Assembly (NCBI GenBank): GCA_000091205.1
Contig: AP006502.2
DNA: 64,000 bases
Source of the DNA: Cyanidioschyzon merolae
Lineage: Eukaryota
Direction: 5' to 3' (one strand)
Part shown: one piece after another, positions 1,754 to 59,974 of the stretch
How positions within the stretch are numbered: position 1 is the stretch's first letter
Layout of the letters: each line of letters opens with the position of its first letter
Notes under the pieces: model-generated
Databases searched by the model: none
Seen by the model: only the letters and a program-made list of their open reading frames with translations
What the model was told of the DNA's origin: nothing
Position numbers and translations under genes: made by a program

Positions 1754-3018
1754 ATGAAAGACATCGACAACAGCGCGAAACTGTACAATCGGTTTCTTTA
1801 CGCTGCCATTAGCATCCTTCGATTCCTGAAGACGGCGCTCGAGAAAAACAAGAGACCGGCGTATTTGCAGCCAGAGATAACAAGAGGAAAAAGAAACTGT
1901 CACAAAACAATCCCACACAAGCTGGCGTCGGTGACAGTGGGAAAAACCAAAAGTTTCGCGTGTACCACCGAATTAGACAGACGACGTCCGTTCCACTCTA
2001 GTCTGACACGGGTCTAGTTCGTTGACGCGGTGAAGCATGAAGATGAGAAGGAGGCGGATCCTTCGACACAGAAAGTGCATGAGAACGACTTTGTCGTCAG
2101 TGCGGACCCTGGAAAAACGAAAATCGTAACCATCGCAGCATCCAGGCGTGCAGAAGATGGCACTGACGGTAACTTACGTCAGAAAGACATGCGTCTTTTG
2201 ATGTTCTCGAGAGCGAGATACTTCCGAAAATCCGGTATAATGAATGCAAGGAAGAAAATTGTACGTGGAATGCAGGAATGAAGGACCACCTTGAAGCTTT
2301 GAGCGAGGTGACGAGCCGAGGAGCGGACTTTGAAGCGTTTCGGAAATTCATGGAAGTTCGCGTTGCGCACTGGGATGCGCTGTGGGAGGATTATACCAAG
2401 CCCCGGTGGGCTCGTCTGCGTATGAATCTGTACTGCGGAAAGCAGCGTGCATTTGCGAACTTTTTCAATGAGTTGAGTGCCTTGAAGGAGGATGAAATTC
2501 AGAGGCTCGTAGCAGCGTACGGAGCAGGGCGCTGGAAGAACCGAAAAGGGACTACGCCAGCTCCAACGACCAGAACATACAAAGAGTGCGCACGGCGTTT
2601 CGTTACGATAGCTTTAGATGAGTCCCGAACGTCCTATACACACCATGAACTCGGGTGTGCGCTTCAGAGAGTGGACATGGAAAAGCGCCAGCGGAACCCT
2701 GAGGATATGAAAAAGTACGGACTGCTGACGGAGGAGCAAATGGAAAGGCGAGCGAAAGTTCGTGGACTACTCGCATTAGTAAGTACAACTATTGACGGCA
2801 AGAAACATATGGAGTATGTGAATCGTGACTGTAATGCCGCTATCAATATAAGGAGATGTGCGGTGATGGAGGAAAGACCTCCGGCGTTGACACGAGAGAA
2901 TTTTATGGGGCAACCTCTGAAAGCCGAACTATATGAGACAAAATTTGAAGCAGAAGTTCGTGGCCGGTTCAAAAAGACGGGTAGGCGTCTGCACGTCAGT
3001 CGGAGACGTCTAGTCTAG
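1754..3018 (+). pseudogene. TnpB/Fanzor-like RuvC nuclease (OMEGA family), copy 1. About 420 codons, interrupted by an in-frame TAG at 2015-2017 and a +1 frame change at ~2279
   Basis: The translation carries a RuvC-I-like VVSADPGKTKIVTIA followed by a SRARYFRKSG helper segment. It then has a RuvC-II/Zn-finger region, VTIALDESRTSYTHHELGC, with the Zn-finger Cys partly replaced by His/Tyr. The C-terminal RuvC-III reads HMEYVNRDCNAAINIRRCAV. The three ORF pieces 1754..2017, 2030..2281 and 2278..3018 are collinear. Confidence 0.6.
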
Positions 3019-3068
3019 GGCGCGTCGCTCGCCACTACTGTACACGGTCGGCATCGTTCGACTCTAGA

Positions 3069-4097
3069 ATGGCGTTCAGCGGAAGTTCGCCTGAGCGAGA
3101 GCGCTCTGGGAGTTGGATACCGAATGGATCCGAGTCCTTTTTCGGGAGTGAAGGATCAGAGGCACCTGAGGGCGCTGAAGGTCTGGGCACCGTATACACA
3201 CCGGTGCTCAATGCGGCCCAACGAGCGAAACTAGAAGCGCTTTCGGAGCTGGTGCGCTCTGCCGCCGAACTAAATCTCACGCCGACCGAAAAGGCCTGGA
3301 TGGATGAGGCGTGCCTATCCCGGTTTCTACGGGCGCGACGATATCACGTTCAAAAAGCGTTCCGGCAGCTGCACGAAACGATTGTGTGGCGGCGCAGTTT
3401 CGGGGTAGAGCAGTTGATGCTCGATCCCGAGCTCGCGGACGTCAAGCGCCAGTCTGAGACCGGCAAGTTGTATGTGCACGGTAAAGACCGGTTTGGTCGA
3501 CCAGCAGTCTTCATGAAACCGCGACTGCAGAACACCAGTGAGCGGAAAACGGCTCACGAACAAATGAGGCAGCTTGTGTACACGCTCGAACGAGCTGTTG
3601 CGGAGATGATGCCGCCAGTCGAGAAAATCTGCCTCGTGATTGACTTTCCCGGTTATTCGTTGCGAAATGCACCGTCTATTAAAGTACAGCGACAGACGTT
3701 GAAGATTCTCCAAGACTACTATCCGGAGCGCTTAGGATTCGCTGTTTGCATTGATGCACCGGCAATTTTCTGGACATTTTTTGAGATTGTCAAACCATTC
3801 ATCGATCGGCGAACATCCGCAAAAATACAGTTTTGCAGTCGAAAGGCGAAAGAAGGCACCAAACAAAATATGCGGACGCTGATGAATCAATTATTTGACC
3901 CAGAGGCGCTGGAAATCGAACTCGGCGGGCGAAGCGCTTGGCGATACTCCAATGAGGAATACTTTCGCGAACGAGTGCTTCCTGAGTATTTGAGAATTAA
4001 ATCCTATCCAGAGCGCGTGGAAATGATTCCTTGTGCTGAGGAGGACGTTAATAATACACAGGACGTTTTCTACGACAGCATGAGCTGCCTCGATTGA
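3069..4097 (+). CDS. CRAL-TRIO (Sec14-like) lipid-transfer protein
   Basis: It has a CRAL-TRIO N-terminal helix, WMDEACLSRFLRARRYHVQKAFRQLHETIVWRR. The lipid-binding core GKDRFGRPAVFMKPRLQN ... ICLVIDFPGYSL ... follows. The ATG at 3069 was verified. It lies between the inverted repeats, 50 bp downstream of the Fanzor-like remnant. Confidence 0.75.
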   Translation: MAFSGSSPERERSGSWIPNGSESFFGSEGSEAPEGAEGLGTVYTPVLNAAQRAKLEALSELVRSAAELNLTPTEKAWMDEACLSRFLRARRYHVQKAFRQLHETIVWRRSFGVEQLMLDPELADVKRQSETGKLYVHGKDRFGRPAVFMKPRLQNTSERKTAHEQMRQLVYTLERAVAEMMPPVEKICLVIDFPGYSLRNAPSIKVQRQTLKILQDYYPERLGFAVCIDAPAIFWTFFEIVKPFIDRRTSAKIQFCSRKAKEGTKQNMRTLMNQLFDPEALEIELGGRSAWRYSNEEYFRERVLPEYLRIKSYPERVEMIPCAEEDVNNTQDVFYDSMSCLD

Positions 4098-5633: not shown

Positions 5634-6214
5634 GCTCCACCTGCGAGCACCGCCCCGTACAGTGTCGACGCTGGCTTCGGCACCCAGCACATACCGTTCC
5701 CAGGTGCAAAAGCCTCGCCTCGATACCCTCCTGCGTCTTGGTGCCCAGCGCTATACCTTACAAGCAATGGCTTTGTCTGGGCGATCCCCACGGCGTCTAC
5801 TCGGTCTGTTGCACATGCAAGTGCGCGCTGTTCCATGCAATCATGAATTTGTGATTCCTCATATCGTCCATATGGAAAAAAGTACCGGAACGAAAATCCA
5901 GTCTGGAGTTCATGTCTAGAAATTTCGATCAGTCTGCGCTTCCGGTTCCGAAAGTGGATGTACGCTCCGTTCGTAGCGATCGTTTCGATGACTGGTGTCC
6001 GAGTCCTTAACCATTCTTCAGGCACACAGAAGAGATGAGAGACTCGTGATGCATATCTTGTGAGTGGTATCTTGATGGTGCTGGCGGATGCCGTTTCGTC
6101 GATGGTCACGTACAGCGGAAGATTTGCTTTTCGGCGGAATCGATCATTCGACGTGACCAGCTCAGTGAACATGCGGCACGAGCGCATGAAATATTCATCT
6201 GGGGACGACGTAGA
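5634..6214. repeat. Right arm of the ~580-bp inverted repeat (partner at 1049-1632)
   Basis: See the left arm. Homology begins at 6214 (the codon for S in STSSPDEY of the minus ORF) and runs to about 5636 (AVLAGG). Confidence 0.85.
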
Positions 6215-9200
6215 GTCTTGCTCGTCGTCAATGCAGTAGAGCGATTTGCCGTACAACGAGTTGCCTTGAAACTGAAAAATCGAAAACGTGACATGTACGT
6301 GATTCGAGCAAGCTGCACAACTCTAAAGAAAAAGCGTACAGGCTTGTACGTATGACTCGGATGATCAGATCGGTTATAGCACGATTCTTTGTTTACGCGT
6401 TACGTGAATCATCTTGATTCCTGTCATGTAATGAATGCTGGTGTAGCATAGATAGAGCGAGCACTAGTGACGAAATGCATATTAGGTATGCATCTTTCAA
6501 TATGCCATATGCATGACAAAATACTGCACATAAGATTATCCGATCCAATGAGCGCTAGATGTGGCGTATACCTGTGCTCGATCCCGAACTGGAGCGCGAC
6601 GCATTCGCGCTGCACCGCCGGCGATAGCGTACAGCAAGTTCGGGTGTCCAACGCACACGTACTGCATACCATACGCTTGCCACATTCGTGAGCGCGCGTT
6701 GATGCTCCAGTGCCATCGCGGCATCATCTCGAATACGCAACCATCGTGCGTACGCATTCGCAACGCTCCCAGCGGGCGCCGGTCATCGCCTTTGGAACCG
6801 CTTCTTGAGCTGGGCTTGATGGCGTCTTTCAATTTATTGATGGAGTAACATCCCACGATTGACACCATAATCGTTCACCAAATGCTCAAGAAAACCGCTC
6901 CTGGGGTAAATATACGGCGGTCACGCCTTGCTGGATTTCCGACCATATCACACGAATACCGTGCTGCAGGCGGAAACCCAATGCCCTTTCTACTGGCCAC
7001 TGAGTTCGGTCGTCGCAGGTCTCCGTCGTTTTGGGACAATGACCAGATCGAATACTAAGCGTTTCCTTCGAAAATTCTCCGGAGTCAAAGCATCTTGACG
7101 TTCTAGATGCATGAGTCATTTCCGTATATCGGTGGAGGTAATGAGATTTCTTTGCAGAGGATACTTATGTGGGCAAGGTTACAGCGGGAATCACTCTAGA
7201 GTAGCGTCTGTCGTCTCCCATTGCCTCGTAAGCTGGCATTCGCTCGGCCTGCCGCATACGACCTCGTGCATCTGGATCTGTTTCACGCGCTTTGTCTCTA
7301 AGTTTCACAGCGGACATTCACGCCTTTGATGCATGTATGACGTCCTGTAAGTTTCGATGGGAATCGTATAGAATTGACCCCTAGATTCGCAGGATGTTCT
7401 CGTCGTCAAAGGAGCAAAAGTCCAGCACCATGGTCTACCACAAACCACCGCGGCGTGTCGATCGTATCCTTGTCTAGCCCACGGAGCAACTTGGCGAATA
7501 CACGATTCCTACCTCCGTACAACCGAGACGGTTGGCGACACCAGCGCAGTCGCCTGAACTCATGCTAAGGATCGTTCGCAGCAGCGACTTGGGTGCTCGA
7601 CGACACTTGACTGAAGCGTACGGAGCATTCGCTTCTGCTCGATTCGGCGGTCAGCGCGTCCAGATGGGTCATTGCGTCGTCGTTCCACTCGTTGGTATGT
7701 CTCCCGGTGTCCATGATTTTCGATATCCCATGCAACCGAGCAATGGAAAAACCAGGCAGTTGTTCAACGTTTTTCCCGAGCATCAGTTGGCACACGAAAA
7801 ATCTGACTGAAACATTCGAGAGGAATGTAGACAGATGGCAGCTCCGCCTCTGGAATTCCTATGCTATGCATCAATCCTGCCCTAAGAACCGGTTCGCTAC
7901 CGCTTGCGCACGCGCAGCAGAGCAATACAGCAGCCCAAAGCTGTTGAAGGCAGAGAGGAACTTGCCTTTGGAACTTTGAGCTTAAAAGAATAGTTCGACA
8001 ACAGAGAAGACGCCCACGATGGATTTGATCCAGAGAGGATGCCTCGGTACGTAGGATGACTTGATACCAAGCTCAACTGTGCACTACATGACCGCTGTAC
8101 GGTCATGGACAGCGATGTTGCGTACGATCAGGACATAAATATGTGGCAAAGAGAAGCCACGGAGTGCATCAGCAAAGCATTTGGTGTCGAATGATCTCGC
8201 CCGTTTGGCGACTTGTGGTCCACTGAAACTTGAATCGCACGCTAGAGCTGATGCTGTCGGAATGCTCGGTTTTCTATTCCTTGTGAACAGTTGTTTGCCG
8301 TCCTTGGAACACTTATAGATAGGTCTGCCATATTCCCATGGCGCATGCTCGTCGCCCGAGACAAAAGGTAGGCTCTCCTGGAACACGCGTTCGCGTTCCC
8401 GCTCGAGATCGATTGTGTGCCGGGCATCGGACAGCGCTCCACCACAGAGACATGCGCTTTTGGTTGCCCATACGTGTGTCTTAATCACCGGTGCTCCCAA
8501 TGGTATAGATACTTCACAACTCCGAGCTTCCTGGATAGTATTTCGAACAGAACATTTGGAGTGGAGTGTCTTGAGAAGGAAACAGTGATGTGGATAGATT
8601 CTGATGCATTCTGGTTTCGCAGCACGATTGTCAAGATCGCGACTTCAAGAAGGGTGCATCATTTACCAGCTGACCAAAGATTAACCGGTTTCCGCGAGTA
8701 AGGCCAGTTTTCGGAACCCAGCGATAGCAGTACAAAGTCTTTCGGCTACCTAAACCCTATGTGCAGAACCAAACTTGTTCTGCTGAATACCTGCGAGGGA
8801 AACGAACAAAAACGAAAAACAAGTGTGCTGGCACACGAATTCCAGAATGCACTTATCTGCGTATAACGTTGCTTACATGTAGCATACATCACCGTAGTAC
8901 AAAAAATACGGTCGACGACTTGTCCGGTTTCCCGCATGCTCGAGACACTGACGCCTGCAACGGAAGGATTCGTTTAACCGAAATGTCCATCCGCGGCACA
9001 CGCAGAAGCGGCATGACACCAGGCCCGTTCCGGAGAGATTTGATGCATCCGAATTCCCAATCGAGGGACATTGCGATGCCGTGCGACTCACCCAAGACCA
9101 CGAGGCCTTGCGCCTTACACGACGGTGACCTGCTTTCCTGAAAGATCTCTCAATTTATGGGCGCATCATCGCAGTCTCTTCTCGTGGATCGAGAAATTCG

Positions 9201-19711: not shown

Positions 19712-21037
<1,326 letters not shown>

Positions 21038-21799: not shown

Positions 21800-22130
21800 C
21801 AGACACTCACGCGCAGACGCTTCCCAGACTTTTTAGACCGGCAGTCCGGTATCGGCGGCAGCTCTTGCGTCTACAAGTTGAGCATCAGAGGCTGCACTAC
21901 AAAGTCGGATCGCGCCTGCTCCTCGGGTCTCGTCCTCAGCACCGCACATCGTATGATATTGGTGGCGGCGTTCAAGTCTCGGTTCACGAACTCCATGTCT
22001 GCATCGACGCTGGTTGAACGCACCATGGCGAGGAATCGTCGAACTCGTGCCCTCTGTGCCAATTGGTGCACTGTCAGCTCTGCATGCTTTTCTATCGCCG
22101 AAGCGCTGCGCGGCTTTCGCTGCATGTCGT
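21800..22130 (-). pseudogene. TnpB/Fanzor-like nuclease remnant, copy 2 (C-terminal RuvC-III region; upstream part decayed)
   Basis: The ORF 21871..22125(-) contains VDADMEFVNRDLNAATNIIRCAVLRTRPEEQARSDFVVQPLMLNL, which aligns to the copy-1 tail NRDCNAAINIRRCAVMEERPPALTRENFMGQPLKAEL. About 300 nt here are ~75% identical to 59320-59600. Confidence 0.45.
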
Positions 22131-24522
22131 CCTTCTGAAACGTACACCCCAGGTCATCGCTTAATTTTTAAAATGCGCGCACCTGCTTATGCCCTTAGGT
22201 GAGGAGCCTCCCACTGGGAGAAGGACCTGTGGAAGAGAGACGACAAACGCCCTGGTGTCACTGGACGGTGCGCTTCAGTGATTTACCCAGTCGAGCGATC
22301 ATTGCGTTTCATGAGAGAAAACACACTTCTTCGATGGCGACGGACCACGTAGCACGCGGCGCAATGAAAAGCAGCTCTACGCTGACGGAATCCGCATATG
22401 CTCGAACGCAAGGGGAATGGTGAAATCCTATGTTGTGTAATAGAAAAACGTCGCCAGACGTCAGGGAAAAGTCTTCAATGATTCGACAAATTGGATGGTA
22501 CTGTTCGACGAGCCTTCTCCACGAGAGAATTGAAGCTGCCAAATGAATCCACTGGAGCTCCAACAGATGATGATGTGGGCGTTCTCCTCGAGTTCGATCG
22601 AACGGACGACGGATTCGTTTCATTTCGAATACCCGTGCGCGCTCCGAGAGTTTCGTCCCAAGCAAGTCACATTGATTGAAAACAACAAACAGATGATCCG
22701 GTGGTTTCTATAGATCGCAACGCTCCAGGAACTCTTTGCGCGCTTTTTCGGTGCAAGATGGTCGTGCGTGAACTAGGTGTTTATGTTTGTGACTCTCTCC
22801 TGGTGTTCTCAGGATCACACGAGCAAGCTGTTGTGAAGCAGAGACGCTTGTGTTGGATACTGTCCTCGCTTTTGCGCCACATAAAATGACCAACTGGTCG
22901 TTTTCCTACGATTGACAGCAAGTGCGCTTGAAGAATATCGGCTTTTGGCACGGAGCGCATATCCTTTTTCCTTTCAGTGTCCTGCAATGATCTGAGCAAT
23001 GTGTTATGACTGACCCGACGGGCGAATACAGTGCTCTTTGCGCTATTCATTAAAGAATCTATCCTATAGACAATTCGTCTACGATCTATACGGTATATGG
23101 CCCCGGCAAGTCGATCTCCTTCCATACACTGCAGCATGACGTACAACAGCATCGATTTGAAAGACGATACCGCTACCCAGCGCGTGAGATCATGAACCCG
23201 CCCAGAGCCTGTCCACGGCATCGCACGCTCGACGACGCTAGGCAGCGTTCGGGGAGTTGAGGCGGTGGCTTCGGTCAGCTCTACTTGCTCCCTTTTCGCC
23301 GTTCGTCGGTAAACGAGCGGGGAAGCAGCGCGTATTCGCCACTAGTCCCGCAGGGATCAACAGCAGAACGCCCTATCCGCGCGTCCTCGCTTGCTGCTGT
23401 GATCGACTGGAGCGGGCATAGGTGCCAGAGCCGTTGACGCGCAGTTCAGCGTTCGGTGTGCTTGTGGGATAACAGAGACGTCGTTGGCGCACTCGAGCCG
23501 ACCATGTCCGTGCCTGCAGCACCCAGAGGCCCAGCGATTAGTGATGATATTGAAATCGTCGCACATCCTTGTAATGAACGCATTGACGATTTAATAAATG
23601 TTCTATTCGATGACCCGCGGAGTCTGGGAGAGCCCTGGCGGGCACTGCGCTCGTGTCTGCGGAGGTACGGACTATTCCCGAGGCGAGAGCTCTGGAAACC
23701 CCAGCCTCATAAGCTTCGAGAAAAGCGGTATTCCGGTGAGCCAGATCCGGTGGACGCAGGCATCGGTGATACGTCACACGGCGCCGGACCTGAAACCCAC
23801 GAATAAGCGCGTTGGCCATCGGGGCGGCTCGCCTCTGACACAGGAGCGCGACAATGCGAGCATCATTTCCATGCGACAAACTCGCCCGCAACGTCCTCAG
23901 CATGATCTTGCATGCGAAACCTGTTGTTTCTCCTCAGCTTGTATGACTGATCGAGAAGGTTGCTTCCGAACCTGCCGCGGCGCAGAAAGCGTACGATGCG
24001 CTGCCAATTTCGAGCACCGACTTTGAGATGAGCTCGGGAGCGTCCGACCAGAGCATCTCATGGAGCCTTGAACGTGCTCGATGATCTCGTGCATGGGCCT
24101 TATCCATCACATCGGCAGGTGTGGCTGTTTCATGTACTGTTGCGTTGCGCGGCATCGCTGGACATCTTCATGCGCCGTAGACGCTCTTCCCGATGACGAC
24201 CATCAGGGTAACAGCATTACACTGGCGCCGGCAAGTGGGTGGCCAGGCCTCGAACACCCCAAAATGGAAACAATCATGTGTGGGCTCCGATGGGGACTTG
24301 GCGTCGCCAAGCGGCGTTCACAGGAACCCCGCCGATGCTCCCCCTGAAAAATGGTCCCTCATACCGCACAGACCAGGATGGCGTTATGGCGAACGCCAGC
24401 GCGCATGCGGGACGCTCGCGCCACTGCCACGTACTCGTTGTTGTGTAGTACCAGCGGTAGCGCTTCGAAGGTCGCATCACCAGGCCGAAACTGGTGACAC
24501 CCTATCCCGCAGCGCGGTATGA

Positions 24523-36519: not shown

Positions 36520-37504
36520 TTTTTTACGCAGCTTGAGCGTCAAATCGAATACGGTATTACAGAACACCCCAAGGGTCGATAGCGTAAGTAACGCTTCGAA
36601 CGGAATCGCTCGAGGTCGGATGCGTTCGAGAGATTTGCCCGCGCATCTGGCGTCGCGATCTCCGCGTTGGACCTCCGGAAGATTCCCTGCGAAGCGCTGC
36701 GATACCCGTTACATGTTCTTTTGCGTGGACGAAACGTTACCATTGATGCGGGGTGTCGGCCTGCAGGCTGCGTACGGGTAATCGAGAAGGCGTCTATCAT
36801 GCAGCGCGCTGCGTTCAAGTTCCACGGTTCATAATTTCCTCTGTAATATTCAGGTCATTGCTTGCGTGCGATCGGGTGCAGAATACCTGCCTTGCTGCTC
36901 TCGACACAGTATCTATACCGGTGGTGCGGTTGCAGCACGGAGACAGACGGGCTCGGCCGCACCACAGAGGGCGTCGGCTCGAGGAATGCTTCCATCGATA
37001 AGGAATCGGGACTCATGATCATTCTGGGAGTCTGCACGCTGCCCAGATAGACGCACAGACTGCAACAGCGCGAAGCAAGTCGCTGCGTGATCAGTGCACC
37101 AGGGCGAAGCTCGGACGCATTTTACCCTGTGCTAGTCTTTGGATACACTGCGTTGCGCACAAGCCGCTCAGGTCTCGCCACAGCACCCGGCACTGCTGAC
37201 GCACACAGAGCGCTCGTCCAGCAGACTCTAGTAGACTCATCCGGATCGCGAGGCCTTCCTCCTAGAAGGTAAACGTACGAGACCACGGAGATTGCTTCCC
37301 CTTTTCAACGTTTACCGTAGAGATGGAACGAAATTCGTACCGAGTAGCTGGTTCGTAGTCCGTTTCCCTTGCTTTTACCGATCGTGTTGCATCCTGAGAA
37401 GATGCGCTGTCGCCGCCGCCTTTAATGCCGCTGGGCGGATGTTTGAAGCGCATGGCTCGCTTCTGCAGTAATCGCTGTGACGAAAGCGTTGCTCTCCTGT
37501 ATCT

Positions 37505-37875
37505 TTAGACAAAGGACCCGCGATCCCTAGAGGTGGCTATTGCCGTGTTGCACACTCCCTAGGCAAAGCTTGTCTGATCTGAATATATACGCAAAGGATC
37601 CGCGATCCTTAAGGGTGGCTATTGCCGTGTTGCACACTCCCTAGGCAAAGCTTGTCTGATCTGAATATATACGCAAAGGATCCGCGATCCCTAAAGGGTG
37701 GCTATTGTCGTGTTGCACACTCCCTAGGCAAAGCTTGTCTGATCTGAATATATACGCAAAGGATCCGCGATCCCTAAAGGGTGGCTATTGCCGTGTTGCA
37801 CACTCCCTAGGCAAAGCTTGTCTGATCTGAATATATACGCAAAGGATCCGCGATCCCTAAAGGTGGCCACTTTAG
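37505..37875. repeat. 83-bp minisatellite, ~4.4 tandem copies, about 150 bp upstream of the Pol5-like gene
   Basis: The unit caaaggatccgcgatccctaaagggtggctattgccgtgttgcacactccctaggcaaagcttgtctgatctgaatatatacg repeats with a few substitutions or indels. Confidence 0.9.
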
Positions 37876-38029
37876 CGTCATACTTTCCCTTAGCAAATCG
37901 TTTCGATCGATACCCGTCGCCGTCCGCACACGTCTTTTCGCACGCGAGGCTCCCTGTGCTGCTCCGGTGCAAGGTGCAACCTTTGCGCTTGTGCCGGACT
38001 CGTTGACGAAGTTGTGTGGGTGTCCGGAT

Positions 38030-41741: not shown

Positions 41742-44700
41742 TTATGGTTGGAGAAGCTTGCGTAAGCGCTCCTTGTAGGCGTTGCATTCCATTTCCATTT
41801 CTGCGAGGCAGATAAGGAGCTCGTTGTGTTCTTCTCGAAGACGCCAAAGCTCCGCCTCCATGTCCGCAGCGCGCGGATCCACGTGGACTTGTGTGGCGTC
41901 CTGCTCTTGCTCCTGCGCTTTCACCACTGCCGCACCTGTTGCTGGTACTGCTGCTGATGCTGTTGCGAAAGCTGACGACGGCAACCAGGCGTGCTGCGAG
42001 CTGTCAGCACCGGATGCGTCCAGCTCGTTGACGTGCGTTGCTCGCCAGGGTTGCTGTGGTTGCGCCCGCTTGTCGTGGTGGTGCTGCTCGGCGAGTTGCT
42101 TGCGCAGCAACATGTTCTCATCGTGCACCATTTCGACTGCGCTGGCAAGTCGTGACTCGCGGGCAATGAGTTCCTCGATCTGTTTCTCTAGTTGCGCGAT
42201 GAGGTCGCGCTGTGCAGCTGCACTGCTTGGCAACTCTGCCGCCGTCTCCATATGCTGGCTGTGGCTCCCTCTGGTATCGTCGGATGGATGCGCTGGCTCC
42301 AGTCGGGGCAGGTTCGTGTCGGTGAGCGCTTCTCGTGAAGATACCTGGTCGTCGCCGTTGTCGTCGTCGTCGTCGTCGTCGTCGTTGGGTGTCCCAGCAA
42401 GCACGCTGGCACGAGTTCCAGAGGCATTTGGATGCTGGGCGTGCTCCCATGCTGCCAAGCGTGCGCGTAGGGCGCTGATACAGGTCTGAAGACGAATGTT
42501 CTCTTGGCGAAGATCGCCGCTCGCCATGCGTTCTTTCACGAGAGAGCGCTGTAGCGCATCGACGGACGCTGGATCCGCTGCTGGGCCGTCCACATCATAT
42601 GAAGCGCTGGAATCGTTTTCGGGACTTGCTCGGTACTGGGTTGTTTCTGGCGCTGATGCTTCGTCGAACGCGCGCTTGTGCGATGACGCAAGCGCAATCG
42701 TGCGCAGGTGTTCGATCTCTTCCTCGAGTTCCTGGAGGACTTGTTCATGGACCCGCATCATTTCACGCATACTGGCCTCGTGCCTAGATTCAAGTTCAGC
42801 TAACTGCCGTTCATAGGCATCGCGGACAAGTTGTACTTGATGGGTATGCTGCTCTCCAGCGAACGCTTTGTCAGCCCTGATCGCTGACTCGGCGTGATCA
42901 TCATCATCATCATGATCGTCATCGCCATCGTTATCATCGGGGTCGTGCTCACCATGCATCGCTAGCACCGCAGGAACTGGCTGCGGTGAGCGCTCGTTGC
43001 GCCTCGCCTCCGAGTCTGCGACTTGTTCGGTACCCGTAGCACCAGCTGATAGGATGACAGCGCGGATTTGCGCCTGGAGGTTGTCAAACTCAAGTTCACA
43101 TTCTTGCAATGTTGCCTGCTGATCAGTGAGCATATCAAGCTGCCGGTCGATTATGGCGAATTGCTTATCCCTCCAGAAGTGAACGGTCGACGCACATGCA
43201 CTGACCTCGGATGCGGTCGCGTCTATCACTCCAGTGATCTGATCCGTAAGCGCTCGTCTCCATCGATGATGCTCCGCTTCGATCATATGGATGCGAGCAC
43301 AGAGTGCTTCCTGTTGCTCCTCAGCGGTAGCCAGTCTCTGGTTGGTCTGGTGAAGCTCCGCTACGCACTCATCGTGCGCAAGCTGAGTCTCGGCGTGCTC
43401 CGCGAGTACTCGGTCCAGCTGCGATTGCAGTTCGTGGCTGATTTCCTCGTACTGCTTTTCCGCCGCCAGTGCTTCTTCACGCTCCAGGCCGAGGGCATTT
43501 TGCAAGTTCTGCACTTGACTCTGTAGGTGCTGTACTTGGTCTTCTCGAGATGCAAGCGTTTCTTGCAAGAGTAAAACCTGAGCGCTAAGTTCCTCCAATT
43601 CAGCATCGCGCGTTTCGCTTTTGGATTCGAGCTCGCGATTTCTCGCTTCCAGTTCAGCAAGTTTCTCCCTATCCGCCTGGGCCTGTTCTAAAGAGATTTC
43701 CAACTCCCGTCGTTCACTCTCAAGCTCTTCGCACCTTCGCGTGATCGTTCGCATGGAATCCTCCAGATCCTCGAGCCGGCGGCGGTCTCTGGTAGCCGCA
43801 GTCAACGCTTCTTCGTATTCCTCGATGCGAGTCTGGTAGAGCTGCACCAGCTCCTCGAGTCTCTGTAGCTCTGCAGTTTGTCCGTCGCAGTCTGCATGCT
43901 GCTCTCTGAGCACAGTGAAGCTGTGGGAAACCTGCGCTAGATCTTCCTCCAGAGACCGGATACGCGAGTTCAACAACGCCTTCTCATGTACGTGAGCATC
44001 CAGTTCGGATTTCAGATTTGTGCATGTTTCCTGAACACTTTCGAGACGACTTGCATGCTCCAGCAGAGAGTCTCGTTCGTCACAGACGTTTCGATATTGG
44101 GTTTCGAGTTCTGCGAGTTGCGTTTGCGCTGCTTGCTGGGCTGCTACCGCATGCCCGAGAGACGCGCATTCGCTCCGAAGCCTGTCTCGTTCGTCACAGA
44201 CGTTTCGATATTGGGTTTCGAGTTCTGCGAGTTGCGTTTGCGCTGCTTGCTGGGCTGCTACCGCATGCCCGAGAGACGCGCATTCGCTCCGAAGCCTGTC
44301 TCGCTCGTCACAGACGCTTCGATACTGGGTTTCGAGTTCTGCGAGTTGCGTTTCAGACCGACGCAATTCCGCAAATGCATCCTCTAAACGCTGCCAGGAT
44401 CCAACAGCATGCGAGACAGGCCCTGCCTCGGCATACCCAGGCTTCAGATATCCAAACAGTTTCACCGCAGCGTCCTTGAGCGCACCCAGCGCAAGCCCTT
44501 TAATCAGTATCTCTTCCAGTATCAAAACCTCTACCCTGAACGCACCATAACCAGCAGCACGCTCCCGAGCGATTGCCTGATTCTTTCGCAAGGCATAAGC
44601 GAATAGTTCGGGAAGCGCCTCCAAGGGCGCAACACACGTCCCTACCTCTGGTGCAGTGCAGGCACCGACCGTCGTGCGCTGCAGCGTCATCTTCGCTTCT

Positions 44701-59159: not shown

Positions 59160-59650
59160 TCCTATTCGGCTAAGACGATCGTACATACCGACTTGTCATT
59201 ACCAGAGCGCATGCGGAGTTGCTTCCGTATCCGGGTATCAAAGCAGCCTGTTCTTTGCGTTAAGGGCTCGGACAATGCCCAGCGAAACATTGAATGTCCC
59301 ACGACGGTAGAGTGTATAAAGACACCCGCGCGCAGACGCTTCCCAACGTTTCTGGACCCACCGACTGCTATCGGTTTCAATTTCTCTTTGCAAACTTGGA
59401 GCTTGAGAGGATGTCCCGCAAAGTTGGCTGGTACCAGCTCCCCGGGTTTCGTTTTCAGCACCGCACATCGTCGGATGCCGTTGACGTGTCGGTTCACGAA
59501 CTGCATGCGTTTATTGCATCTGATGGAACTCACCATTGCAAGGATTCCTAGAACTAGCGCCCTCTGTGCCACTACAGCCTTGTCATCGTCCGGTCGGGCA
59601 AACACCTTTTCTTGTCTGTCTCTCATCGTCATCTTCTTCCTCGTCACGTG
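59160..59650 (-). pseudogene. TnpB/Fanzor-like nuclease remnant, copy 3 (degenerate RuvC-III region)
   Basis: The ORF 59162..59647(-) contains RALVLGILAMVSSIRCNKRMQFVNRHVNGIRRCAVLKTKPGELVPANFAGHPLKLQ, which aligns to the copy-1 tail. The catalytic D is replaced by H, and there is a 2-aa deletion in NAAxNI. The nucleotide sequence is ~75% identical to copy 2. Confidence 0.4.
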
Positions 59651-59974
59651 CTTATCTTCGCTCGATGGTCGGCGAGATGAGGATTTTTTCGTTTTTTCGG
59701 CAGCCGGTGGCGGCGGTCCTCATGGTTCCCAACTGTCATGTCCATACGTTTCCCACGTCTTTTATATTTGAAAATGAACGCACTTCGAACACATCTGCGA
59801 TAAACGGCGAAACGGCATTTGATGACACGCACCGAGCGGTGACTCTCCAACGAGGTAAACGACTATAGGAGAGAGAACCAGCCTCGCTAGCGCCGATGAT
59901 CTCATGGCAGCATGCAAAGCGCACACGCTGCTTTCCTCACCTGCACAGTAACATGCATTGTGTGCAGTATCTCC

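Follow-up and report, generated by a model that had tools for sequence, protein, structure and literature searches.

The closest described relatives of the locus analysed here belong to the same species. A single Fanzor1 family, CMe-1A (also in Repbase), has been reported from Cyanidioschyzon merolae, with about 150 copies that are each about 80% identical to a consensus of about 3 kb and of which some are still intact (Bao and Jurka, 2013, Mobile DNA 4:12; PMC3627910). The same study placed the encoded protein, CMe-1, in Fanzor1 by phylogeny, found the 5' module of the element to be common to TE-N2_CMe, left the element unclassified, and reported that it lacks TIRs and that its TSDs could not be determined (PMC3627910). 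Its termini (a T-rich 5' flank, a terminal palindrome, no TIRs or TSDs) are suggestive at most of a Helitron or IS200/IS605-like class, and we too leave it unclassified. The 3169-bp CMe-1A consensus and the 734-aa CMe-1 protein used below were taken from the supplements of that paper (PMC3627910).

Outside red algae, the closest named relatives are VCa-1 of Volvox carteri and proteins of Tetrabaena (PNH08370.1) and Haematococcus (KAJ9522957.1). They share with CMe-1 a layout without a zinc finger (...EFR[ST]...RGLLW...NRD), but are only about 30-40% identical to it, come from another host lineage and, where their carrier elements are known, sit in different ones. The Fanzor1 proteins of solved structure, SpuFz1 (8GKH, 9CEU-9CEZ), PpFz1 (9CF0-9CF3) and GtFz1 (9CER), are only 13-16% identical to CMe-1 in sequence. 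Bacterial TnpB (ISDra2, 8H1J) and Cas12f are much smaller and possess a zinc finger; they reside in IS200/IS605 elements with a TnpA partner, and their likeness to CMe-1 is detectable by fold only. A CCCC zinc finger is found in the TNB/NUC domain of SpuFz1, and TnpB also has one (PMC10432273). The C4 finger has been listed among the 'strictly conserved' Fanzor motifs (Bao and Jurka, 2013; PMC3627910) and ascribed to 'many' TnpBs and Fanzors (Yoon et al., preprint), while DPG is described as the Fanzor-typical RuvC-I signature (Yoon et al., preprint). Published Fanzor1 omega-RNAs measure 75-150 nt (PMC11423790).

A 5'-truncated CMe-1A copy and its surroundings

By the window we mean the whole stretch of 64,000 nt that was analysed. 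We conclude, with a probability of about 0.93, that positions 2026-3074 of its + strand are a dead, 5'-truncated insertion remnant of CMe-1A. By blastn and Smith-Waterman alignment this segment matches positions 2117-3169 of the consensus with 87.9% identity over 1054 columns, beyond the 80% nucleotide identity over a long stretch that defines the family, and the encoded protein is 82-85% identical to published CMe-1. The alignment extends to the final base of the consensus, and the copy retains the last 1053 of its 3169 bp. Homology begins abruptly at consensus position 2117, where a 75-80-bp unit starts that other copies carry in one to six tandem repeats. Because homology starts there and nothing upstream matches, the coding capacity of the copy is limited to residues 405-734, the C-terminal 330 of the 734, which correspond to the RuvC/TNB half of the protein. 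It has neither the non-coding module of the 5' end nor residues 1-404 with the WED/REC half. The consensus and the copy thus resemble each other in host species, in collinearity to the 3' terminus and in motifs including DEFRTSYTHHELGC and NRDFNAAINI, whereas the copy differs in lacking positions 1-2116, in being frameshifted and in carrying substitutions at several conserved residues. It is therefore not a full-length member, which would span about 3.2 kb with an intact 734-aa ORF. The parts of the locus are as follows.

1754..2017 (+): upstream ORF unrelated to the element; no DNA or profile homology, the region matching orthologous loci only
2026..3074 (+): 5'-truncated CMe-1A copy that extends to the very end of the element on the 3' side; aligned to the consensus by blastn and Smith-Waterman
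2027..2260 (+): coding remnant, CMe-1 residues 405-482, with RuvC-I (ADPG; catalytic GAC at 2105-2107) and the SRARY helper segment; HMM E=2.3e-13
2261..2262 (+): site of a frame-shifting 1-bp deletion (consensus A2353); consensus alignment and gapless ortholog
2263..3018 (+): coding remnant, CMe-1 residues 484-734 plus stop (TAG at 3016-3018), with the catalytic codons GAG at 2620-2622 (RuvC-II) and GAC at 2827-2829 (RuvC-III), YTHH at 2635-2646 in place of the first CxxC, and a Cys-to-Arg change at 2686-2688; HMM E=1e-80
3019..3074 (+): untranslated 3' end of the element, as seen when 58 distinct copy ends were compared
3069..4097 (+): host gene SEC14 (BAM83510.1); exact protein match, Pfam CRAL_TRIO E=7e-39

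A preliminary description, made from the letters alone, had regarded the locus as belonging to an unannotated family. The feature is in fact already known, being a fragment of an element family published in 2013 with consensus, protein and copy number; what stands of that claim is that no CMe-1-like ORF occurred among the NCBI-sourced proteins in our homologue search, which returned 216 unnamed metagenome proteins of up to 582 aa with 70-80% identity. The three + strand ORFs on which the description was built (1754-2017, 2030-2281 and 2278-3018) are all present, as are the in-frame TAG at 2015-2017 and the four peptides that it quoted (VVSADPGKTKIVTIA, SRARYFRKSG, VTIALDESRTSYTHHELGC and HMEYVNRDCNAAINIRRCAV).

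Stitching these ORFs together had yielded a 'TnpB-sized' protein from 1754 to 3018. This product is an artefact, since the protein does not include segment 1754-2014. The DNA of this segment has no similarity to the CMe-1A consensus (Smith-Waterman score 11, shuffle mean 11.8), the score of positions 1628-2025 against the consensus ORF does not exceed that of shuffled sequences, and the clade HMM described below gives the ORF at 1727-2014 an insignificant E=0.49, in an alignment that falls at the wrong end of the model and is not collinear. The ORF at 1754-2017, or the region 1628-2025, as the missing N-terminal part of CMe-1 was ruled out by blastn, tblastn, HMM and Smith-Waterman comparison, and a likeness to the consensus noticed by eye (KLYNRFLY.../GKRN...) did not hold under blastn, tblastn, HMM or Smith-Waterman shuffles. 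Nor do the copies whose truncation falls near consensus 2093-2117 have a 5' end in common, the DNA upstream of the remnant in the window matching orthologous loci only.

The number of copies given for the window, three, was also too low, as it holds four protein-level remnants (the one at 2026-3074 included) and one fragment of the 5' module. The additional elements are listed here.

7287..7858 (-): very old Fanzor1-like remnant in several frames, about 32% amino-acid identity to any family member; HMM E=7.9e-6
21805..22167 (-): older diverged remnant, consensus 2737-3092, 70% nucleotide and about 50% amino-acid identity; HMM E=1.5e-13
36782..37359 (+): piece of the non-coding module from the 5' end of CMe-1A, 73% identical to consensus 59-621; comparison with the consensus
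59165..59828 (-): older remnant in which a large internal deletion has joined consensus 826-969 to 2840-3087; HMM E=1.8e-4

Elsewhere in the window, the ORF at 19736-21037 exactly matches DnaJ (BAM83513.1), which like SEC14 is a protein of C. merolae 10D from the 1.62-Mb chromosome. The remnant and SEC14 lie between the two arms of a 615-bp inverted repeat (1013-1627 and 5636-6250), which are 98.6% identical. These repeats were considered as transposon ends or as a transposase gene and set aside: since their ORF has neither a Pfam match nor a homologue outside the species, they are treated as a local inverted duplication.

Frame lesion and neutral drift

The reading frame is broken by a 1-bp deletion at window position ~2262 (consensus 2353, ATTGAGACG to ATTG-TACG), which is the sole indel inside the ORF in the alignment to the consensus. 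The frame change that the preliminary description reported is real, but it does not lie at ggaATGAagg (~2279), where the ORFs 2030-2281 and 2278-3018 do no more than overlap, at ATGA 2278-2281. An orthologous locus in a sister strain (L001, an ENA metagenome contig) carries the remnant followed by SEC14 and is 98.8% identical to the window over 4584 bp. As this alignment is gapless, the sister strain has the same frameshift.

Comparison of the two strains also indicates how the sequence has evolved. The remnant differs by 12 non-synonymous and 3 synonymous substitutions (pN 0.021, pS 0.018, pN/pS ~1.2), whereas SEC14 differs by 3 non-synonymous and 6 synonymous ones (pN 0.0038, pS 0.0253, pN/pS 0.15), so that the ratios rest on few substitutions, 15 and 9 respectively. 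They indicate that the remnant is neutral and that SEC14 is under purifying selection. Relative to the family consensus, the pN/pS of the copy is 0.26, implying that its lineage was under protein-level selection before the copy died and that most of its divergence from the consensus dates from a time when this lineage still had a protein under selection. The remnant is thus a pseudogene that has drifted neutrally since the two Cyanidioschyzon strains diverged, and this copy is unable to make a Fanzor1 nuclease.

Could the locus nevertheless yield a working product? This would call for a programmed +1 or -1 frameshift near 2262-2281, or for the 246-aa ORF at 2278-3018 to be a domesticated RuvC-II/III protein. 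It is true that the ORFs overlap at the ATGA, that the codons for D, E and D are all intact, and that gene calling in a sister strain likewise yields the 246-aa ORF (P0014). However, the consensus and dozens of copies have no shift at this point, the 246-aa ORF by itself lacks the RuvC-I Asp, and the WED/REC half, which is needed for RNA and TAM binding in the solved Fanzor1 structures, is absent. Moreover, of the copy-specific changes relative to the consensus (GADPGN to SADPGK, DEF to DES, EKC to EKR and NRDF to NRDC), the last three hit residues that are conserved in the clade, and pN/pS between the strains is ~1.2. We therefore hold such a product to be very improbable. The programmed frameshift or sequencing error that had been suggested is likewise very unlikely: at this site the frame is uninterrupted in the consensus and in many copies, the deletion recurs in the sister strain and the region is neutral.

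Fanzor1 membership and the missing zinc finger

The place of the family in Fanzor1 was examined independently of the published assignment, and in profile searches the link to the solved Fanzor1 proteins emerged only once distant relatives of CMe-1 were included. CMe-1 matches Volvox VCa-1 in a phmmer search (E=6e-9, Z set to 1e6), and an exhaustive profile search returned 1517 cluster representatives at E<=1e-3, of which 733, clustered at 50% identity, lie at E<=1e-10, the threshold by which we define the size of the clade. These relatives are of algal origin, green (among them Tetrabaena and Haematococcus) and red, or stem from related metagenomes; they are not bacterial. A narrow profile of 24 sequences of about 75% identity (A1) had no match in the PDB. 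A profile of 83 diverse clade members to which distant ones had been added (A3) matched PpFz1 (9CF0, E=1.2e-20) and SpuFz1 (8GKH, E=1.9e-14), in an alignment that is collinear through FTG.IeTDG, DPG, DEFRT, RGLL.C and NRD. The AlphaFold model obtained from a shallow alignment was set aside (pLDDT 37); with the A3 alignment, the AF2 model of family member P0028 reached pLDDT 83.6 and pTM 0.79, and Foldseek ranked SpuFz1 first (E=2e-13, TM 0.65), followed by PpFz1 and GtFz1 (to E=5e-9) and then by Cas12 proteins and TnpB. Both the profile and the fold of the family are thus significantly similar to those of solved Fanzor1 proteins.

Against the six-frame translation of the window, the clade HMM matches 2173-3015 with E=1e-80 and 2018-2278 with E=2.3e-13, which is much more than chance would produce. 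In the remnant the RuvC-I, -II and -III motifs (DPG, DE.RTS, NRD) are collinear and the D-E-D triad is intact, as had been proposed from the sequence. RuvC-I reads SADPGK in this copy, the DPG being kept in the clade with D in 83/83, P in 78/83 and G in 81/83 members. RuvC-II and RuvC-III read LDESRTS and NRDCN, and the order of D, E and D aligns with that in SpuFz1 and PpFz1. Throughout the clade the triad is invariant (D 83/83, E 83/83, D 80/80). Family members also possess the WED/REC lobe, whose FTG.IETDG strand aligns to PpFz1 and SpuFz1; it is absent from the copy in the window, which starts at residue 405.

Pfam alone did not reveal this relationship. The single ORFs of the window gave nothing significant (PF07282, Cas12f1-like TNB, at E=0.14 and 12.7 bits against a cut-off of 26.3), six long homologues gave no significant match, and PF26935, a precomputed label on some homologues, was not reproduced by the Pfam search. 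One might therefore suspect that the motifs stem from another family, such as a transferred bacterial IS605 OrfB or a DDE transposase, or that they are due to chance, since Pfam makes no significant assignment and its top nominal match is an unrelated Umbravirus family (E=4e-4, below the cut-off of that family). However, profile and fold searches rank the solved Fanzor1 proteins first, then Cas12 and TnpB, with nothing else significant; the relatives are algal and not bacterial, and the published phylogeny has CMe-1 within Fanzor1 (PMC3627910). An origin from another family is so improbable that it can be neglected. The view of the locus as a decayed gene of the Fanzor1/TnpB superfamily, inside a mobile-element family of an intron-poor eukaryote, is upheld.

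The zinc finger is a different matter. Loss of its cysteines had been described as degeneracy, with loss of function as one possible meaning, but it characterises the family and its clade as a whole and is no sign of decay in this copy: the published consensus itself reads DEFRTSYTHHELGC...EKC, with the same YTHH as the copy in the window, and the C4 finger is absent from the copy, from the consensus and from 82 of 83 clade members, the CxxC...CxnC pattern occurring in a single one. Relative to the four cysteine ligands of SpuFz1, C1, C2 and C4 are replaced in the algal clade. At C1 the 83 members have H (36), Y (10), F (9), C (8) or others, and at C2 D (40), T (26) or others; C3 is kept as C in 57, and no residue is conserved at C4. 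It had also been considered that the histidines might form an unusual metal site. The two His of YTHH are found in only 36/83 and 27/83 members, and their lack of conservation argues against a His-based site. Nor is the missing finger a ground to exclude the clade from Fanzor1, given the strong homology in sequence and fold.

A possible, and for now tentative, interpretation is that CMe-1 forms the red-algal tip of an extensive Fanzor1 clade, spread over red and green algae and related metagenomes, in which a zinc-free hairpin (...L..V...VRGLLWC.ST...) has taken the place of the CCCC finger while D-E-D has stayed invariant. The invariance of the triad across the algal clade suggests that the nuclease is still under selection despite the lost CCCC finger. 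We found no discussion of a zinc-finger-less Fanzor1 architecture in the accessible Fanzor literature.

The element terminus, SEC14 and the meaning of the locus

The 3' end of the element was compared across copies by collecting 80 related loci from hot-spring metagenomes and aligning 45 distinct 3' ends. A conserved box, CGCCACTACTGTACAC, follows the stop codon in common among copies and lies at 3030-3045 in the window. Most copies end in a short palindrome, CGTTCGACTTTCGAACGGCG or GCGTTTTTCTTTTGAAAGGCG, beyond which the flanks diverge; the copy in the window has a degenerate terminal palindrome ending in GGCG (3055-3074).

The terminus reaches into the neighbouring gene. The annotated ATG of SEC14 (3069-3071) lies inside the last 6 bp of the element, whose terminus here reads GAATGGCG, and GAACGGCG or GAAAGGCG in most copies. 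Perhaps the host has co-opted the remnant, with the 3' terminus serving as promoter, 5' UTR and start codon of SEC14, which would be compatible with its being a dead CMe-1A copy. The position of the ATG, the retention of this arrangement in 4/4 orthologous metagenome loci and in the sister strain, and the distance to the next in-frame Met of SEC14, some 77 residues downstream, speak in favour of this idea. On the other hand, substitutions in the body of the remnant are at least as fast as those at synonymous sites of SEC14, and plain adjacency is expected in a very compact genome. We thus consider co-option unlikely, if clearly less so than a working protein product. In any case this start codon illustrates on a small scale how the end of a transposon can supply sequence close to a gene in a very compact genome.

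It is also conceivable that the 3' end specifies a guide RNA. The check on a conserved omega-RNA scaffold across copies revealed no statistically supported structure by RNAalifold, pair counts, folding or Rfam. Three candidate stems in the last ~95 nt are able to pair in 83-92% of cells, with covariation not above shuffles (31/500 and 62/500); RNAalifold on 45 and on 31 copies gave a weak consensus only (-6.2 to -6.8 kcal/mol); the fold of the consensus RNA is moderately better than that of shuffles (z=-2.3); and an Rfam search had no match. The data are compatible with an omega-RNA. By homology to SpuFz1, PpFz1 and GtFz1, intact family members would be omega-RNA-guided double-strand DNA endonucleases. 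Their guide RNA may be a transcript of the 3' part of the element, with a scaffold that would end within the region corresponding to 3019-3074, and the nuclease may help the element to persist or spread. RNA guidance thus remains a putative property of the CMe-1 family, and what points to RNA-guided DNA cleavage is homology together with the invariant triad.

For annotation, the broad label of a Fanzor/TnpB-like remnant was right, while the suggestions of an undescribed family, of a metal site built on His and of programmed frameshifting fail. Window positions 2026-3074 should be masked as a CMe-1A fragment with no gene, and the ORF at 2278-3018 should not be called as a protein. Since the locus is one of about 150 copies of a family catalogued in 2013, its main value lies in correct annotation. 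The zinc-finger-less algal clade is mildly novel, and bears on the working of the TNB domain and on the mining of compact nucleases. If the clade is what it appears to be and its intact members are active, they would be RNA-guided nucleases that are independent of a zinc finger, some of them from a thermoacidophile.

The zinc finger and the repeated unit before RuvC-I

CMe-1, the 734-aa protein of the published element CMe-1A, belongs to a clade of red- and green-algal Fanzor1 proteins that lacks the CCCC zinc finger throughout, a C4-like pattern being present in only 1 of the 83 members of our clade alignment (A3). The D-E-D triad of the RuvC domain is nevertheless invariant in these proteins. 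The C4 finger has been described as strictly conserved in Fanzor (Bao and Jurka, 2013; PMC3627910).

In the ORFs of the CMe-1A family (related metagenome loci L002-L081), a 75-80-bp unit (~25 aa, VAKHEEKKEADPATQEVQENDFVVG) is also found one to six times in tandem, directly 5' of the DPG motif of RuvC-I.

2026-2105: tandem unit in the window (CMe-1A consensus 2117-2196)

The first base of the CMe-1A copy in the window falls exactly on a boundary of this unit, and truncation at consensus 2093-2117 is likewise seen in several other independent copies.

Element termini and the start of SEC14

At its 3' end the CMe-1A remnant reads GAATGGCG (3055-3074), while the majority of copies end in GAACGGCG or GAAAGGCG.

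3069-4097: SEC14 (BAM83510.1), annotated ATG within the final 6 bp of the CMe-1A remnant

Since the annotated start codon lies inside these last bases, SEC14's ATG and the sequence just 5' of the gene come from the end of the element.

Full-length copies are flanked on the 5' side by T-rich sequence (...GATTTTNTTTC / CAATGACAAAACG, the slash marking the junction; L007, L024, L025, L033, L050, L056 and L080), which is similar to the CGTTTTTCTTTT close to the 3' terminus of one subfamily. This may reflect a target-site or TAM-like preference, as judged from only about eight independent junctions.

Strain differences and the flanking inverted repeat

Compared with the same locus in a sister strain (L001), the window shows 13 differences in the 250 bp at 2791-3040, versus 0-8 in other 250-bp bins. 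There L001 has the consensus-like residues KRVEFVNRDFN and the window copy KHMEYVNRDCN. This cluster could stem from ectopic gene conversion, with another copy as the donor, or from a local mutation burst.

1013-1627 and 5636-6250: inverted repeat, 615 bp, 98.6% identical, flanking the CMe-1A remnant and SEC14

The repeat carries a 183/237-aa ORF for which neither a Pfam match nor a homologue beyond the species was found. In one metagenome strain (L057) synteny with the window stops at ~1047, which gives the repeat's outer edge the appearance of a rearrangement breakpoint.

Other repeats and an older remnant

36782-37359: TE-N2_CMe-like fragment (5' module of CMe-1A)
37450-37904: tandem array of five 82-83-bp units, directly after this fragment
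44070-44411: separate tandem array, 114 bp x3
7287-7858 (-): multi-frame Fanzor1-like remnant

The last of these is at most ~32% identical to any member of the family or clade. It is far older than the CMe-1A copies, and it may be the relic of a second, extinct Fanzor1 lineage in the C. merolae genome.
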